Made by a program: the position numbers and the translations under genes
Notes under the pieces: generated by a model
Databases searched by the model: none
Told to the model about the DNA's origin: nothing
What the model saw: only the letters and a program-made list of their open reading frames with translations
DNA from: Nitrospinaceae bacterium
GTDB taxonomy: Bacteria; Nitrospinota; Nitrospinia; Nitrospinales; Nitrospinaceae
Reading direction: 5' to 3'
Length of the DNA: 64,000 bases
NCBI GenBank assembly: GCA_965237905.1
Contig: OZ250172.1
Coordinates: 1,280,001-1,344,000, forward strand
Shown here: positions 7,577 to 19,004 of the stretch, piece after piece
Numbering within the stretch: the first letter of the stretch is position 1
How the letters are laid out: each line of letters begins with the position of its first letter

Positions 7577-7827
7577 GAATTTAAGGCCAAACGTTTTCCG
7601 GCAAAGTCCTATTCCTCCAATTTTTCCTCTAAACCCGACCCTCGGAAGACCAGCTAACCCCTTCATTGGTAAGGGAGTACCCCTTCCAAAAGCAGACACC
7701 TCTATACGGAAATTCCTTTTTGACTTTTCAGAGTTTGTGAGTCAATCTATATATCCAATGGGATGCCAGAAGCGCCAGGGGAGCTTTTGGCATTAATGCT
7801 CACCCCCTGAAGAAAGGAGGTGATCCA

Positions 7828-7872
7828 TTGTCTAACGAAAGCACAATGGGAGCTTCCGGAGATAAGGGCTAA
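7828..7872 (+). CDS. Putative 14-aa peptide MSNESTMGASGDKG
   Basis: TTG start directly after the maximal SD AGGAGGTGATCCA; stop TAA at 7870-7872. Confidence 0.4.
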   Translation: MSNESTMGASGDKG

Positions 7873-7907
7873 CCCCTTTATCGAGGAAGCTCCCTGATTA
7901 TTCGGGG

Positions 7908-7937
7908 GGGCTCCACTTTTATAGTGGAGCCCTTTTT
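7908..7937 (+). terminator. Rho-independent terminator
   Basis: GGGCTCCACT-N5-AGTGGAGCCC-TTTTT. Confidence 0.75.
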
Positions 7938-8071: not shown

Positions 8072-10666
8072 ATGAATTTTTTAAAGAACGTCTCCATACG
8101 CGACAAGCTCAACCGGATCATCATGCTGACCACCAGCGTGGCCCTGTTGTTGGCCGCGCTCGGTTTTTTTCTGTATGATCTTCTGGAATTTCGCAATACC
8201 GAGACGCGTGAGCTTTCAAGTGTAGCCGATATTATCGGCGCCCACAGCACAGCTGCCCTCAAATTTCAGGATTCCATTTCCGGCCGGGAAACCCTGGAAA
8301 CCTTAAGCATCGACCCCCGCGTTGTTTCCGCCAGACTGTATACCCAGGAAGACGAAATTTTTGCATCTTATAACCGGGACCGCAAAAGCAAAATTGTCTT
8401 GCCGTCCCAACCTCGACCCGCAGGCAGCTATTTTGAACAAGGACAAATTCTGATATTCAGGCCGATCCTTCTCAATGGCAAAAAAGTGGGGACCATTTTT
8501 ATTCATTCCGACCTTCAAAATTTTTATGAGCGTCTTCAGCAATACGGCATCATCGCGTTTATAGTACTGGTCATCTCCCTGCTCGGTGCCTTTCTACTTT
8601 CATCCAAACTGCAGAAGACTATTTCCTTCCCGATCCTGCATCTGTCCAACCTGGCGAACCGGGTTTCCACCGAAAAAAATTATTCCCTGCGCGCCGTCAA
8701 CGAAAGTCAGGATGAACTGGGAGAACTCGTCAATCAATTCAACGACATGTTGAGCCAGGTTCAGGATAGAGACCTTGCGCTTCAGGAGGCTCATCACGCA
8801 TTGGAGGGAAAAGTCCGGGAACGTACCCACGATCTGGAAAATGAAATCCAGATTCGCCGGAAATCGGAATCCGCTCTTCGGGAAAGTGAAGAACGCCTGC
8901 GGAGTATCCTGGACCATGCTACCGCAGTGGTTTATATGAAGGACATCGATCTGCGGTATGTACTGGTCAATCATCAGTTTGAAAAAGTGTTCGCCGTAAC
9001 GAATGAACAGATCCGGGGGAAAACGGATCCGGAAATTTTCCCAAAAGATCTAGCGGGCCGCTTTATCAGCCGGGACAGCATCGTCCTCGAATCCGGCCAA
9101 CCCTTGGAAGTCGAGGAACAATTTAAGGTAAATGGGAAAACCGAAACTTATATTTCGATCAAATTCCCTTTGCGCGATTCCGACGGCAAAATTTACGCCG
9201 TTTGCGGTCTGGACACCAATATTACGGACCGGAAAAATTTTGAGCCGGAACTGCAAAACGCCAAGGTCCAAGCAGATTCGGCCAACTCGGCCAAAACCGC
9301 CTTCATCGCGAATATGAGCCATGAAATCCGGACTCCTCTGAATGCCATTATGGGTTATTCCCAGATTCTGCAAAGGGATACCACGTTGACAGCGGAACAT
9401 CATCAGGCTCTGGAACGCATCGATTCCAGCGGGAAAAACCTGCTCGCCATCATCAACGACATCCTCGATATATCCAAAATCGAAGCGGGACGGATGGAAC
9501 TCCACTTGAGGAATTTCAACCTGCTTCAGGTCATCGAGGATATCACCACTCTTTTTAAATTGAAATGCGAAGAGAATGGTTTGATTCTTGAAATCTCCCC
9601 GCTTCCTGAAGACCGGTGCCATCTATACGGGGATGAAGAAAAACTAAGACAAGTGCTGATCAACCTCCTGGGAAATGCACTCAAGTTTACCGATTCGGGA
9701 ACCGTTTCCCTGAACATCATTCCTGGGGAAAACGACGAATACCGGTTTGAAGTCAGAGACACTGGAAAGGGCATATCGAAAGAAGCTCAAAAAACCATCT
9801 TTGAGCCTTTTAAACAAGACGCCGAGGGAATCAAAAAAGGAGGCACCGGATTGGGTCTGGCCATCTGCCGGAAACAGATTCTGCTAATGGGATCGGATTT
9901 ATATGTATCCTCGGAAATAGATGAAGGGTCGCGTTTTTATTTCAGCCTCCATTTACCGCCATCCAGAGGAAAATCGAAATCCGGAGAAAAAATAAGCAAG
10001 AAGGTAATTCGAATCTCCGGCGAACATCATGTCAAAGCCCTGGTCGTCGACGATAACTCGGACAACCGGACGGTGCTGAGCCGCCTGCTGAAAACCATAG
10101 GAGTCAACGTCATTGAAGCGGAAAACGGACTGATCGCTCTGGAAAAAACGCGCGAACACCTGCCGGATATTATTTTCATGGATATTCGTATGCCTGTCAT
10201 GGATGGCCGGGAAGCCATCACCAAAATAGTGGAGGAATTCGGACAGGAGCGGTTCAAAATCGTGACCATCACCGCTTCGGCCATGCAACACGAACGGGAA
10301 CAATTCCTTAAACTGGGTTCCCATGAGGTGATCCTCAAACCGTTTCAGACCAATGAGGTTTTTGAATGCCTGAAAAATCTTCTTAACATCGATTATATTT
10401 ATTCAGAAGCACTTCAAAAAGACACCGAACCCAAAGTGTCGCACGACATGGATTATTCTCAAATACATATCCCCAAAACCATCCACCACTCGCTCAAAGA
10501 AGCGGCGGAACTGCATTATGTCACAGGCATTCGACAATCACTGCCGTTACTCGTTGAGTCGGGAGAAGAAGGGAAAAAGCTGGCGGATAATCTGAACTTC
10601 TGTCTCAATGATTACGATATGAAAAAAATTCTAAGTATTCTCGATCAGGTCAATTCGGAAGGGTAA
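8072..10666 (+). CDS. Hybrid sensor histidine kinase/response regulator (periplasmic sensor-HAMP-PAS-HisKA-HATPase-REC)
   Basis: Two TMs, HAMP (DELGELVNQFNDML), PAS, H-box FIANMSHEIRTPLN, GNALKFT, GGTGLGL, REC (VVDDN, IFMDIRMP, KPF). Confidence 0.95.
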   Translation: MNFLKNVSIRDKLNRIIMLTTSVALLLAALGFFLYDLLEFRNTETRELSSVADIIGAHSTAALKFQDSISGRETLETLSIDPRVVSARLYTQEDEIFASYNRDRKSKIVLPSQPRPAGSYFEQGQILIFRPILLNGKKVGTIFIHSDLQNFYERLQQYGIIAFIVLVISLLGAFLLSSKLQKTISFPILHLSNLANRVSTEKNYSLRAVNESQDELGELVNQFNDMLSQVQDRDLALQEAHHALEGKVRERTHDLENEIQIRRKSESALRESEERLRSILDHATAVVYMKDIDLRYVLVNHQFEKVFAVTNEQIRGKTDPEIFPKDLAGRFISRDSIVLESGQPLEVEEQFKVNGKTETYISIKFPLRDSDGKIYAVCGLDTNITDRKNFEPELQNAKVQADSANSAKTAFIANMSHEIRTPLNAIMGYSQILQRDTTLTAEHHQALERIDSSGKNLLAIINDILDISKIEAGRMELHLRNFNLLQVIEDITTLFKLKCEENGLILEISPLPEDRCHLYGDEEKLRQVLINLLGNALKFTDSGTVSLNIIPGENDEYRFEVRDTGKGISKEAQKTIFEPFKQDAEGIKKGGTGLGLAICRKQILLMGSDLYVSSEIDEGSRFYFSLHLPPSRGKSKSGEKISKKVIRISGEHHVKALVVDDNSDNRTVLSRLLKTIGVNVIEAENGLIALEKTREHLPDIIFMDIRMPVMDGREAITKIVEEFGQERFKIVTITASAMQHEREQFLKLGSHEVILKPFQTNEVFECLKNLLNIDYIYSEALQKDTEPKVSHDMDYSQIHIPKTIHHSLKEAAELHYVTGIRQSLPLLVESGEEGKKLADNLNFCLNDYDMKKILSILDQVNSEG

Positions 10667-15937: not shown

Positions 15938-16022
15938 TTTGTAAGACTCCATCAAAATACCGGCTCAAACCGAAATTTCGCTTTGACCCTTTGACTCGGC
16001 TTTTTCAATAAAATTGGGAATT

Positions 16023-19004
16023 ATGAAAAATCCCCGCCTGCCCGGCAAAATTATCCTCCCGACCGCCTTTTTTCTCATTCTGGCTGGATCGTTGGGCTTG
16101 TTATTCGACAATAAATTTCCCGGTATTGCTGTTGCCTCTGATGATCAATCCCAAGCGTCCTTTATTATCGAAACGGCCGCTAGCGAGAAGCAGGTGGTGG
16201 ATCTCTCCCAAACGTCGCCTGCCTGGAGGCAGAAGCTCAGCAAACATATTTTCATCAATATTGACCAGGAACTGCAATCGCTCGAACAACAATTCACCCT
16301 GCACAACAGCGCCAAAGGAAAACGGTTAATCAAGAGAGTAAGAGTTTCTCTTCAGAAAATGAAATCCGGAAAACAGAAATTTATGCGTACTGGCCGGGAA
16401 CCCTCCCTCGCTCTCTTTTACAACGGCCGCACGGTGCTGGAATACAATCTGTGGAAATTGAAGGGCCTGACTCGAAACTTAAAGATGGACCAGACTCAAT
16501 CGCGCGGCCTCTATCGGGTTTACGCGCTGATGAACAAATGGCTCGTCTATGTGGCCCACCGCGAAATCGACGCACGGCGACAAGGAAGCCTCGATGCCTC
16601 ACTCCGGGCAGAAACGAAGTCAACGCAGGGTATCGAAGAGTTCAATACCGCTTTCCCGCAAATATCAGAAATGGCTAAGATTACCGAACAGGATCTCAAA
16701 GAGGCCGGCGAAGCACTCTCCCAACCGCACTCCCCAGTGCAGAAGACCACACCCAACATCAATTCGGAAACCTTCGAACGGGAGACTCTCAAGTCACCGG
16801 AACCGGAGACCCGGCAAGACCCTCAACCGAATTTGGTGATGGAAGAAGGGAACACCGTCTCTCCACCCAGCTTCGAAGAGGGCGTTGACTCCCCCGAGGC
16901 GGCAACCATTTCAAACTGGATATTCGTACTGGTAATGGGGGTTGGAGTTCTCATAGTCTCGTTCCTGATATTCCGCAGAAAAAGAAAATCCACCGATCTA
17001 CGTACGTTTTATAGAGGTTATGCCAAAAATCATTTGGAACGCCACGATCAAAACACCACCGATTTCGTAGAGATTCATACCCTCATAGGATCTGGCTACA
17101 CAGAGGATACCGCGGCTGACAACGCAAGTGAGGTTCCAAACAATGGGGATTTCTCTCTGGAGAATTCAATCTTCCGCGAAGCACTTCCTCAAGCCCCGGA
17201 TCACATGACTCTCCAAAATGAACCTTCCTCCCTGAGCAGTGCAATGTCAGAAACCATGGAGTCTCCTACAGAAGAATGGTCCAAGAACAGTGAAATCGAA
17301 GCACCCATCACCGATGGTGAAACGCCCGAGGGTATTCCTTCACAGGTAACGGACAACGGATTTGAAGACCCCGCTCAGAAGGACATGACCTTCCAATTGG
17401 AAGAGCTCACCCAAAAACTGGAAAACACGCTTGCGGAAAACGACTCTCTAAAAGAAAAGCTGGAGACCTTCCACGAAATAAATGAAGGTTTGGAAAGCCA
17501 GGTAGAAGCCCTGCGCAATAAAAGAAAAAAGTACGCCCACGGATGGGTAAATCTTCTTAAGGAAAACCACTCCCTAGCGGAAGCACAGGAGATTTCTAAT
17601 AAAGAAACAGAGGAGCTCGACCAGGATCTGGAAAGCACACTCACCGAAAAAGAAGATCGCGCCCAAGGACTGGAAAACATCCTTGCGGAAAACGACTCTC
17701 TAACGGAAACGCTGGAGTCGACCAATTCGGAAAATGAAACATTAAAAGAACAACTGAAAACTCTCCGCGAAGAAAAAGAAGAACGGGGCAAACAAATGGA
17801 AACCCTACGCAATGAAAAAAAAGAGTACACCCAGAAATTAGAAACTCTCCGCGAGGAAAAAGAAGAGAGCACCCAAGGACTGGAAAGCATCCTTGCGGAA
17901 AATAACTCTCTGACGGAAATTCTGGAGTCGACCGCTTCGGAAAATGAAACATTAAAAGAACAACTGGAAACTCTCCACGAGGAAAAAGAGGAACGGGACA
18001 AACAAATGGAAACCCTCAGCACCAAAGAAGAGGAGCTCGCCCAGAAGCGGGAAAACATCCTTGCGGAGAATAATTCTCTAACGGAAAAATTGGAGACCCT
18101 CAATGAGGAAAAAGAGGGCCTGAAGAAACAATTGGAAACCCTTCACTCTAGAGAGGAAGAACTCGCCCGGCATCTGGAAAGCACGCTCGCAGAAAACAAC
18201 TCTCTAACAGAAAATATGGGGACCGCCCACACAAAAGAGGAAGACCGGGACAAACAATTGGAAACCCCCCACGCTGAAAAAGAAGAACGCGACCAGGAAT
18301 TGGAAAACACGCTTGCAGAAAACAACTCTCTAATGAAACAGCTGAAGACCTCTCACCAGGAAAATGAACGCCTGAAGAAACATTTGGAAACCCTCCACAC
18401 CGAAAAGGAACGCCTGGCGCAAAAACAAAATAACACTGATGCAAAATCTAAAACCATGAAGAAAACCCCTAAATCCACTCGGGGGAACAATAAAATACCG
18501 GCGAAGAAACTGAAAAGCACTCCCACAGAAAAAGAAGCCTTAACAAAACAATTTAAAGCCGCCCAGGAAAAAGCCAAAAGATTGGCGAAGGAACTGAAAA
18601 ACTCCTCCGCAGAAAGAGAAGCCTCAACGAAAAAACTTAAAGCTACTGAAGAAAAATCCAAAAGATTGACGAAGGAGCTGAAAAACACCTCCACAGAGAA
18701 AGAAACCTCAGCGAAAAAACTTAAAGCTACTGAGGAAAAAATCAAAAGATTGGCGAAGGAGCTGAAAAACACCTCCACAAAAAAAGAGACCTTAACGAAA
18801 AAACTTAAAGCCACCCAGGGAAAAAATAAAGGGTTGCCGAAGGAACCGAAAAGCACTTCTACAAAAAAAGAAGCCTTAACAAAAAAATTTAAAACCTCCC
18901 AAGGAAAAAACAAAGCGACTGCCAAACAATATAAAGCTTTGGCCAATCAATGGAAGCGACCCAAACCGAAAGCGATCAAACCACCGAATCAGAGTGCACT
19001 CTGA
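16023..19004 (+). CDS. Large membrane-anchored repetitive coiled-coil protein, function unknown
   Basis: N-terminal hydrophobic segment, internal TM (WIFVLVMGVGVLIVSFLIF-RRKRK), acidic heptad repeats, Lys-rich C-terminal repeats. ATG 16023 preferred over TTG 16014. Confidence 0.8.
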   Translation: MKNPRLPGKIILPTAFFLILAGSLGLLFDNKFPGIAVASDDQSQASFIIETAASEKQVVDLSQTSPAWRQKLSKHIFINIDQELQSLEQQFTLHNSAKGKRLIKRVRVSLQKMKSGKQKFMRTGREPSLALFYNGRTVLEYNLWKLKGLTRNLKMDQTQSRGLYRVYALMNKWLVYVAHREIDARRQGSLDASLRAETKSTQGIEEFNTAFPQISEMAKITEQDLKEAGEALSQPHSPVQKTTPNINSETFERETLKSPEPETRQDPQPNLVMEEGNTVSPPSFEEGVDSPEAATISNWIFVLVMGVGVLIVSFLIFRRKRKSTDLRTFYRGYAKNHLERHDQNTTDFVEIHTLIGSGYTEDTAADNASEVPNNGDFSLENSIFREALPQAPDHMTLQNEPSSLSSAMSETMESPTEEWSKNSEIEAPITDGETPEGIPSQVTDNGFEDPAQKDMTFQLEELTQKLENTLAENDSLKEKLETFHEINEGLESQVEALRNKRKKYAHGWVNLLKENHSLAEAQEISNKETEELDQDLESTLTEKEDRAQGLENILAENDSLTETLESTNSENETLKEQLKTLREEKEERGKQMETLRNEKKEYTQKLETLREEKEESTQGLESILAENNSLTEILESTASENETLKEQLETLHEEKEERDKQMETLSTKEEELAQKRENILAENNSLTEKLETLNEEKEGLKKQLETLHSREEELARHLESTLAENNSLTENMGTAHTKEEDRDKQLETPHAEKEERDQELENTLAENNSLMKQLKTSHQENERLKKHLETLHTEKERLAQKQNNTDAKSKTMKKTPKSTRGNNKIPAKKLKSTPTEKEALTKQFKAAQEKAKRLAKELKNSSAEREASTKKLKATEEKSKRLTKELKNTSTEKETSAKKLKATEEKIKRLAKELKNTSTKKETLTKKLKATQGKNKGLPKEPKSTSTKKEALTKKFKTSQGKNKATAKQYKALANQWKRPKPKAIKPPNQSAL
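17400..18915 (+). repeat. Intragenic degenerate tandem repeats (42-bp modules; 84-bp C-terminal units)
   Basis: LENxLAENxSL recurs six times. Near-identical blocks start at about 17671 and 17881 (210 bp apart). KKLKATEEKxKRLxKELKNTSTxKETx units recur every 84 bp. Confidence 0.85.

Follow-up and report, generated by a model that had tools for sequence, protein, structure and literature searches.

A probable rre-type small mRNA with an extended Shine-Dalgarno sequence and a predicted 5' pseudoknot

The infC gene is autoregulated through its AUU start codon. IF3 discriminates against AUU, AUC and AUA starts and against Shine-Dalgarno (SD) sequences that are too long, and the first translocation is slower with a strong SD; the same source counts UUG among the starts canonical for IF3 (PMC4611024). 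Extended SDs act as a sensor in rpsU of Bacteroidota (PMC9976891) and help weak starts in S. aureus (PMC13009471), and the 5' pseudoknot of the tisB toxin mRNA is a standby site for S1 and the 30S subunit (PMC7708055). The closest described systems are the rre small mRNAs, with rreB in Bradyrhizobiaceae and rreR in Rhodobacterales (Hahn et al., PMC5711450). According to that report, rreB is a 165-nt RNA that co-sediments with 30S subunits and is weakly translated, and its start codon speeds decay. A 20-fold overexpression was harmless and left growth unchanged, and ribosomes far outnumber rreB. The RreB and RreR peptides are unstructured and kept within clades, with no similarity to each other, and rreB adjoins a hybrid sensor gene in B. 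japonicum. The same text names alphaproteobacterial orders only and does not contain the word pseudoknot. A search of the open literature yielded no rre follow-up since 2016 and, for the class, no non-alphaproteobacterial member, pseudoknot or near-cognate start. The class is thus known, and the pseudoknotted variant described here was not found in the open literature.

The unit lies in a 64-kb stretch of DNA (the window) from a 3.09-Mb genome assembled as one contig with a single 16S gene. The original prediction had described a small transcript with an upstream hairpin, a long complement to the 16S tail, a short ORF, a second stem and a terminator, and had suggested a search of related genomes, analyses of covariation and peptide conservation, and a comparison with Rfam. 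The upstream hairpin, the TTG-started ORF and the stem at 7848-7857/7885-7894 with the stop codon in its loop are all present (Table 1). The list of parts was correct as far as it went; what it overlooked were the promoter, the pseudoknot, a hairpin that covers the start codon and the alternative fold hiding the SD.

Table 1. Features of the unit and its neighbour, in window coordinates.
Feature	Position	Strand	Details and basis
Predicted sigma-70-type promoter	7720..7748	+	-35 hexamer 7720-7725, 17-nt spacer, weak -10 hexamer 7743-7748
P1 hairpin	7763..7793	+	7763-7772 with 7784-7793; fold and homolog comparison
Predicted pseudoknot stem 2	7776..7809	+	P1 loop 7776-7781 with C-rich strand 7804-7809, 6 bp
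Purine-rich 18-mer	7810..7827	+	Read directly
Extended SD	7811..7827	+	17-nt perfect complement of own 16S 3' end
P3 hairpin over start codon	7825..7849	+	7825-7831 with 7843-7849; fold
14-codon ORF	7828..7872	+	TTG start, TAA stop, hydrophilic peptide; read directly and conservation
Switch arm	7849..7857	+	Codons 8-10, internal 16S-tail mimic; predicted partner SD or 7885-7893
P4 hairpin	7849..7893	+	Stop codon in terminal loop; covariation and fold
Predicted intrinsic terminator	7908..7937	+	9-bp GC hairpin 7908-7932, then five T
Hybrid sensor kinase (neighbour, outside unit)	8072..10666	+	Pfam CHASE8-HAMP-PAS-HisKA-HATPase-REC

The long match to the 16S tail is real. It covers 17 rather than the proposed 18 nt, with base 7810 mismatched to the genome's own 16S, and it is the sole non-rRNA site in the 3.09-Mb genome with at least 15 nt of 16S complement. 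The duplex spans the entire free 16S tail at a predicted -30.9 kcal/mol, compared with -20.3 kcal/mol for the best other gene start among 1361 roughly placed starts. Relatives retain about 13-15 nt of complement around a conserved core of approximately 13 nt. The fold of the unit has a z-score of -8.45, and none of 200 shuffles was as good. The 17-mer reproduces the antisense strand of the 16S end exactly and might thus be read as a chance match or a leftover of a 16S gene. The match ends at 17 nt, and at least 83 genomes carry the unit with its promoter, frame and covarying stems, while a reversed-pattern control matched none of 120 genomes. These conservation data refute the reading, to which we assign practically no likelihood.

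The search covered 120 genomes of the source phylum, a phylum other than Pseudomonadota, with 102 of them in the source order. The SD-start pattern matched 75 of the 120, all in the source order. One of these matches (L217) is spurious, and variants of the unit are present in nine genomes that the pattern missed, which places homologs in at least 83 of the 102 source-order genomes. Of the 19 others in the order, 7 were examined with the model R1, and none of these 7 has the unit. In the other orders of the phylum, the pattern matched 0 of 18 genomes and R1 found nothing save one weak SD-only match; four SD matches in these orders proved unrelated on inspection. The unit is single-copy in each pattern-matched genome except G076 (L296, L297), the only genome with two intact copies, which may reflect bin mixing.

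The unit very probably belongs to the rre small-mRNA class. Membership calls for at least 16 nt of 16S complement directly before the start codon, and the unit has 17 nt reaching the start codon, with 13-17 nt across the class. A short ORF with a weak, non-AUG start is likewise shared, here TTG with 14 codons, the same length as in rreB, and 13-15 codons in 48 of 49 relatives. Further common traits are Ser as second codon, an SD and start codon predicted to be hidden in a stem, a stand-alone unit whose own promoter and terminator are indicated by conservation, and an unconserved gene context. The unit differs from described rre genes in having carriers outside Alphaproteobacteria, a leader of ~55 nt with the predicted pseudoknot instead of one of 8 nt, a dedicated competing partner for the switch arm and a dissimilar peptide, as well as in the TTG start, with ATC, ATT or ATA in relatives. 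We stop short of a firmer placement because similarity beyond the SD-start motif is absent. R1 aligns with rreB and rreR loci over the SD-start region only (13-23 bits). Beyond ~22 nt the unit is unlike alphaproteobacterial rre genes, so that the likeness could also reflect convergence on the 16S tail. Published rreB primers match locus L117.

The view that the unit belongs to no named family has to be given up given its fit to the rre small mRNAs and a sub-threshold match to the Caulobacter sRNA CC2171 (Rfam RF01867). The unit scores 34.5 bits (E 1e-5) with the CC2171 model, below the gathering cut-off of 75, and is thus not a member. The two have the 5' SD-start motif in common, but the 3' structure fails to align and CC2171 lacks a pseudoknot. 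Applied to 20 loci, the CC2171 model exceeds 75 bits in six (Caulobacteraceae, Methylobacterium, Pseudolabrys) and gives rreB- and rreR-type loci 37-42 bits, so CC2171 is one rre subfamily (Caulobacter/Hyphomicrobiales). Expression of CC2171 was confirmed by Northern blot in Methylorubrum (10.1101/2022.01.24.477521). At gathering level, Rfam returned only tRNAs in the 64-kb window; the window holds no tmRNA, and the tmRNA of the genome lies elsewhere.

The 5' end of the unit is predicted to form an H-type pseudoknot supported by compensatory changes. P1 is stem 1 of this pseudoknot, and its loop holds the G-rich strand that would pair with the C-rich strand in stem 2. Covariation was assessed in alignment A1, which comprises 49 copies of the unit. 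Absent from A1 are L217 (the false match), L008 (truncated), L016 and L248 (altered 5' end), and L007, L222, L226 and L227, which the motif missed; R1 gives L007, L016, L222, L226, L227 and L248 scores of 106-132 bits. For stem 2, 89% of cells are paired, double changes occur in 4 of 7 pairs, and at least five Watson-Crick pairs are kept in 48 of 49 copies. On the RNA tree, the changes are spread over four or more distinct clades, and L294 adds a further case. P1 has double changes in 9 of 10 pairs, and its column pairing is low (67% of cells) because the register shifts between clades. Taken as a whole, the structure outscores each of 500 shuffles and every slid control, with 82% of cells paired compared with 37-58%, among sequences that are related. 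Double changes occur in P4 as well (3 of 10 pairs), and the helix between SD and switch arm has none.

Metagenomic copies were retrieved with a pattern of the 5' part only, which matched at least 120 loci (~370 estimated); 113 of the matches are distinct, 7 being truncated and 106 complete. Among the matches listed, all 111 examined have the G-rich strand enclosed by a P1 hairpin. The median energy of P1 is -14.0 kcal/mol versus -6.4 kcal/mol with the 5' arm shuffled, and 75% of shuffles also reach six pairs. Beyond the five pairs fixed by the pattern, stem 2 is paired in just 20 and 23 of the 97 matches listed, and the metagenomic set therefore yields no stem-2 covariation. In a few copies the 5' hairpin carries an insertion, is lost or is preceded by additions (L016 in G035, L248 in G024, L234, L236 and L237). 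Such copies are natural tests of the need for the pseudoknot.

The remaining helices might form a switch around the SD. The P4 hairpin has 94% of its cells paired in A1, and at least 2 nt of the stop codon lie inside the P4 loop in 43 of 49 source-order copies. Such a loop position is not general in ATC-start copies, where the stop codon is fully paired in 36 of the 72 matches listed according to a crude fold. The P3 hairpin is weak in some clades, and one of its pairs occurs in four forms (C-G in 19, A-U in 14, U-A in 7 and G-C in 2 of 49 copies). In the RNAalifold consensus of A1, the SD pairs with codons 8-10, and nine SD:arm pairs are kept in 48-49 of 49 copies. All 49 copies have a hidden SD in the nascent fold, which precedes the 3' arm, versus 24 of 49 in the full-length fold; for the unit itself, the two folds come to -30.7 and -33.2 kcal/mol, and the 16S duplex to -31.8 kcal/mol in the same comparison. 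The arm is predicted to hide the SD in the nascent RNA and to move to its downstream partner in the full RNA. The arm varies in 16 of 441 cells, less than its P4 partner. The SD:arm helix is unable to covary because the SD is invariant, and 6 of 9 possible transitions in the arm would preserve pairing with the SD regardless. Although the metagenomic pattern covers only the 5' part, 97 of the 106 complete matches listed contain the arm, and in these arm-bearing copies the nascent SD is hidden in 97 of 97, compared with 31 of 97 in a longer window.

A third fold is predicted in which a C-rich strand (7801-7808) pairs with the SD. In 18 of 49 copies this hairpin is at least as stable as -9.5 kcal/mol. 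ViennaRNA, which does not score pseudoknots, predicts 83% pairing of the unit's own SD with the C-rich strand; blocking the pseudoknot strands leaves the SD 43% paired. An H-type fold directly 5' of an SD that its C-rich strand can cover might suggest that the pseudoknot senses a ligand or protein and thereby releases the SD. No Rfam riboswitch matched at E values as high as 10, and both loop 3 and P1 are free to vary. The remaining 31 copies have a weaker competing hairpin, and no regulated gene lies downstream, making such a switch very unlikely. An extra small hairpin is predicted at 7895-7909 between P4 and the terminator and is not evident in distant homologs.

The unit likely forms a stand-alone transcription unit with its own promoter and terminator, giving a predicted RNA of 185 nt from a transcription start inferred near 7755. 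Of 51 homolog loci, 36 have a TTGAC[A/T/C] hexamer 70-130 nt 5' of the SD, with 30 of these 36 at 93-101 nt; among control windows the count is 4 of 245. The intrinsic terminator proposed originally has its stem and T run in place, and a GC hairpin with a T run occupies this position in most homolog rows, as judged by eye and uncounted. A consensus promoter and terminator scanner called neither element at the unit, so both rest on fold and conservation. Four public runs (three RNA and one probably DNA) contained only contigs of relatives, which span the promoter or pass the terminator.

Conservation indicates that the reading frame is under selection, whereas the encoded peptide seems barely or loosely constrained. 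Across the 49 copies, the ORF has 14 codons in 41 and 13 or 15 codons in 7, with one copy frameshifted. Start codons are TTG (34), ATG (14) and GTG (1), and stop codons TAA (29), TGA (15) and TAG (5). The spacer between SD and start is changed by -1, +1 or +2 nt in L295, L294, L292 and L231, as read from the alignment rows, yet 14 codons are kept. Among the metagenomic matches listed, 72 copies have ATC (55), ATT (14) or ATA (3) at the start position, and all 72 keep a frame of 13-15 codons, in contrast to the scattered lengths of the two alternative frames. In the copy at L236:1553-1620 (G027, approximate), a one-base frameshift in a G run extends the ORF to 18 codons, through either decay or an assembly error.

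The conserved length and frame could point to a micropeptide gene, as the original prediction had considered, in which the peptide is the product and the RNA structure merely keeps expression very low. Peptide sequence conservation, unlike that of length and frame, is slight. The pN/pS ratio is 0.84 over the ORF, a value near 1 that is not clean because RNA structure depresses pS too, and codons 4, 7 and 12-14 are highly variable. Codons 8-10 (Gly-Ala-Ser) have a pN of 0 among close pairs, the only codons to do so. This conserved core coincides with the paired arm, although a constraint on the peptide would explain the Gly-Ala-Ser conservation equally. Ser is the second codon in most clades and is frequent at codons 2-5, in gammaproteobacterial copies too. 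For the published rre genes, conservation of the peptides within clades and weak translation of rreB favor a peptide product, while the lack of similarity or structure in RreB and RreR speaks against one. Near-cognate starts would also give very little peptide. We regard a micropeptide gene as possible but unlikely.

On balance, we lean towards an rre-type small mRNA that acts as an RNA, binding the 30S subunit via the 17-nt complement and holding it at the IF3 initiation checkpoint, with the peptide as a by-product. Transcription would run from the unit's own promoter to its own terminator. In the nascent RNA, codons 8-10 are predicted to pair with the SD and start codon, which would block ribosome loading. 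Once the 3' arm is completed, P4 would capture the switch arm and the pseudoknot would occupy the C-rich strand, as suggested by the covariation of both elements, so that the SD might open at little cost. By analogy with tisB, the pseudoknot may also be a landing site for S1. Tight binding of the 30S subunit, seen for rreB in the published text, would then follow here. With an over-long SD and a poor start (TTG, or ATC, ATT and ATA in relatives), the joining of the subunits and the first translocation would both be slow. Whenever a ribosome did, rarely, translate as far as the stop codon, RNA decay would speed up, as shown for rreB. The RNA level would then gauge free 30S subunits and the state of initiation factors. 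Because UUG itself counts as canonical for IF3, the case for IF3 in this unit depends on the relatives and on the length of the SD.

The proposal of a small transcript built for very tight 30S binding agrees with the rreB experiments (PMC5711450) and with the conservation of the unit. A bulk role in sequestering ribosomes, also proposed, would have the RNA store or park a sizeable share of 30S subunits under stress. The duplex over the whole free 16S tail, the unit's own promoter and terminator, and the 30S binding shown for rreB would suit such a role. It is weakened because 20-fold rreB overexpression left growth unaffected and ribosomes far outnumber rreB, and bulk sequestration would need no conserved start and stop. 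We consider it improbable. The tisB-like architecture could also suggest a type I toxin-like mRNA with a hidden SD, a 5' pseudoknot and an antisense antitoxin. As in tisB, a predicted 5' pseudoknot lies upstream of a sequestered ribosome-binding site, but the unit has no toxin-like peptide, no known antitoxin and a far longer SD. The peptides are short, polar or hydrophilic, and without a membrane segment, the unit is near-universally single-copy in the source order, and rreB overexpression was harmless in the published text. A toxin seems highly improbable.

The neighbourhood of the unit argues against control of the downstream gene. The original prediction had raised translation-coupled attenuation of the hybrid kinase, and the location of rreB next to a hybrid sensor gene in B. 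japonicum might be taken as a parallel. Of the 48 loci given, 46 have a downstream ORF, and this ORF is kinase-like in only 9; we reject attenuation on this ground as scarcely plausible. The other 37 of 46 have different neighbours (MscS, GatC, FliG-like, SnoaL, CBS, NnrS), and in 14 of 46 the longest downstream ORF, a crude pick, runs in the opposite direction to the unit. L011, from the same genus, has the unit but lacks the kinase. Neither the consensus fold nor the homolog folds examined show an antiterminator, and no run of control codons appears in the ORF codon table. Autoregulation of the bS21 type was also discarded, as rpsU of the source genome has an ordinary SD. Elsewhere in the window, a 996-aa ORF (16014-19004) encodes long acidic tracts followed by lysine-rich repeat tracts.

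The same design occurs in at least four phyla, namely the source phylum, Pseudomonadota, Gemmatimonadota and probably Planctomycetota. A GTDB scan with the shared 20-letter motif matched at least 120 loci (~5800 stretches estimated), and the matches listed are mostly Alphaproteobacteria by title. An ORF of 10-30 codons is present in 116 of the 120 matches listed, versus 50 and 28 in the other frames. An internal anti-SD is a modest general trait, as 84 of 115 beat shuffles (median -12.8 versus -11.5) among the 120 GTDB matches listed, and the SD switch is therefore not claimed for all rre genes. With the second codon unfixed, plain rre-like units were found among Alphaproteobacteria in 14 of 81 genomes, in the Gemmatimonadota group in 7 of 61 and in the Planctomycetota group in 4 of 61, counts that include centre genomes chosen for their match. 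In a gammaproteobacterial set (81 genomes, including the chosen centre), one of three matches is a plain rre-like unit. The pseudoknotted unit was found in 1 of 201 genomes of Pseudomonadales and in 14 of 61 genomes of its family. One copy with an ATC/ATT/ATA start adjoins a MetR-like gene whose named homologs belong to Pseudomonadales/Gammaproteobacteria. The variant spans two phyla given its presence in this gammaproteobacterial family, which places part of the 72 copies.

A drifting peptide behind a conserved frame, ORF length and poor start, in a design shared by at least four phyla, points to an RNA-level role at initiation. We tentatively extend this to a doubtful but conceivable joint reading, in which rre genes would be a cross-phylum class of translation-initiation gauge RNAs. 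The variant would be locked during transcription and then capture a 30S subunit along the whole 16S tail at a purposely bad start, in the extreme AUC, AUU or AUA, its lifetime reporting IF3 and free 30S to some partner, much as an infC-like sensor freed from any gene. The likeness to the rpsU and infC systems is that an extreme initiation site serves to sense the state of ribosomes or factors. They differ in that rpsU and infC exert cis control of a ribosomal protein or factor gene, whereas the unit has a 14-codon ORF and no gene attached. If the gauge reading is true, rre genes are no alphaproteobacterial curiosity. The variant narrows the question of rre function, unexplained since 2016. As a compact RNA with two defined folds and a natural series of start codons, it makes the mechanism open to direct tests, and it could reveal how far mRNA pairs into the base of the 16S tail.

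Several minor observations concern the wider set of loci. Two queries found no match on plasmids. The 45 viral matches are mostly ordinary longer genes with a long SD, and a few resemble host rre genes; two viral matches to the pseudoknot pattern were rejected, with L300 being coding sequence and both scoring 9 bits with R1. The ATC-start copies (L317, L344, L355, L401 and L426) often sit where a MetR-like LysR gene has its 3' end. Different genomes of one gammaproteobacterial family carry either the pseudoknot/ATC type (14 of 61) or a plain GTG type with 25 codons (3 of 61), the two types being represented by L439, L450 and L451 versus L427-L433. The Gemmatimonadota copies (L251-L256, L022, L027, L033, L098, L136) have a TTG start and 19-20 codons, and a conserved motif within their ORF could pair with the SD. 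Erythrobacter-type rre loci (L026, L055, L110, L124, L141) have a different conserved structured leader ~70 nt 5' of the SD. Finally, a family of 65-codon phage genes (L143, L146-L150, L152, L153 and ~20 more viral loci) combines a 13-14-nt 16S complement with a TTG start. The SD of these genes overlaps the stop codon of the upstream gene and is unusually long for a gene of ordinary length.
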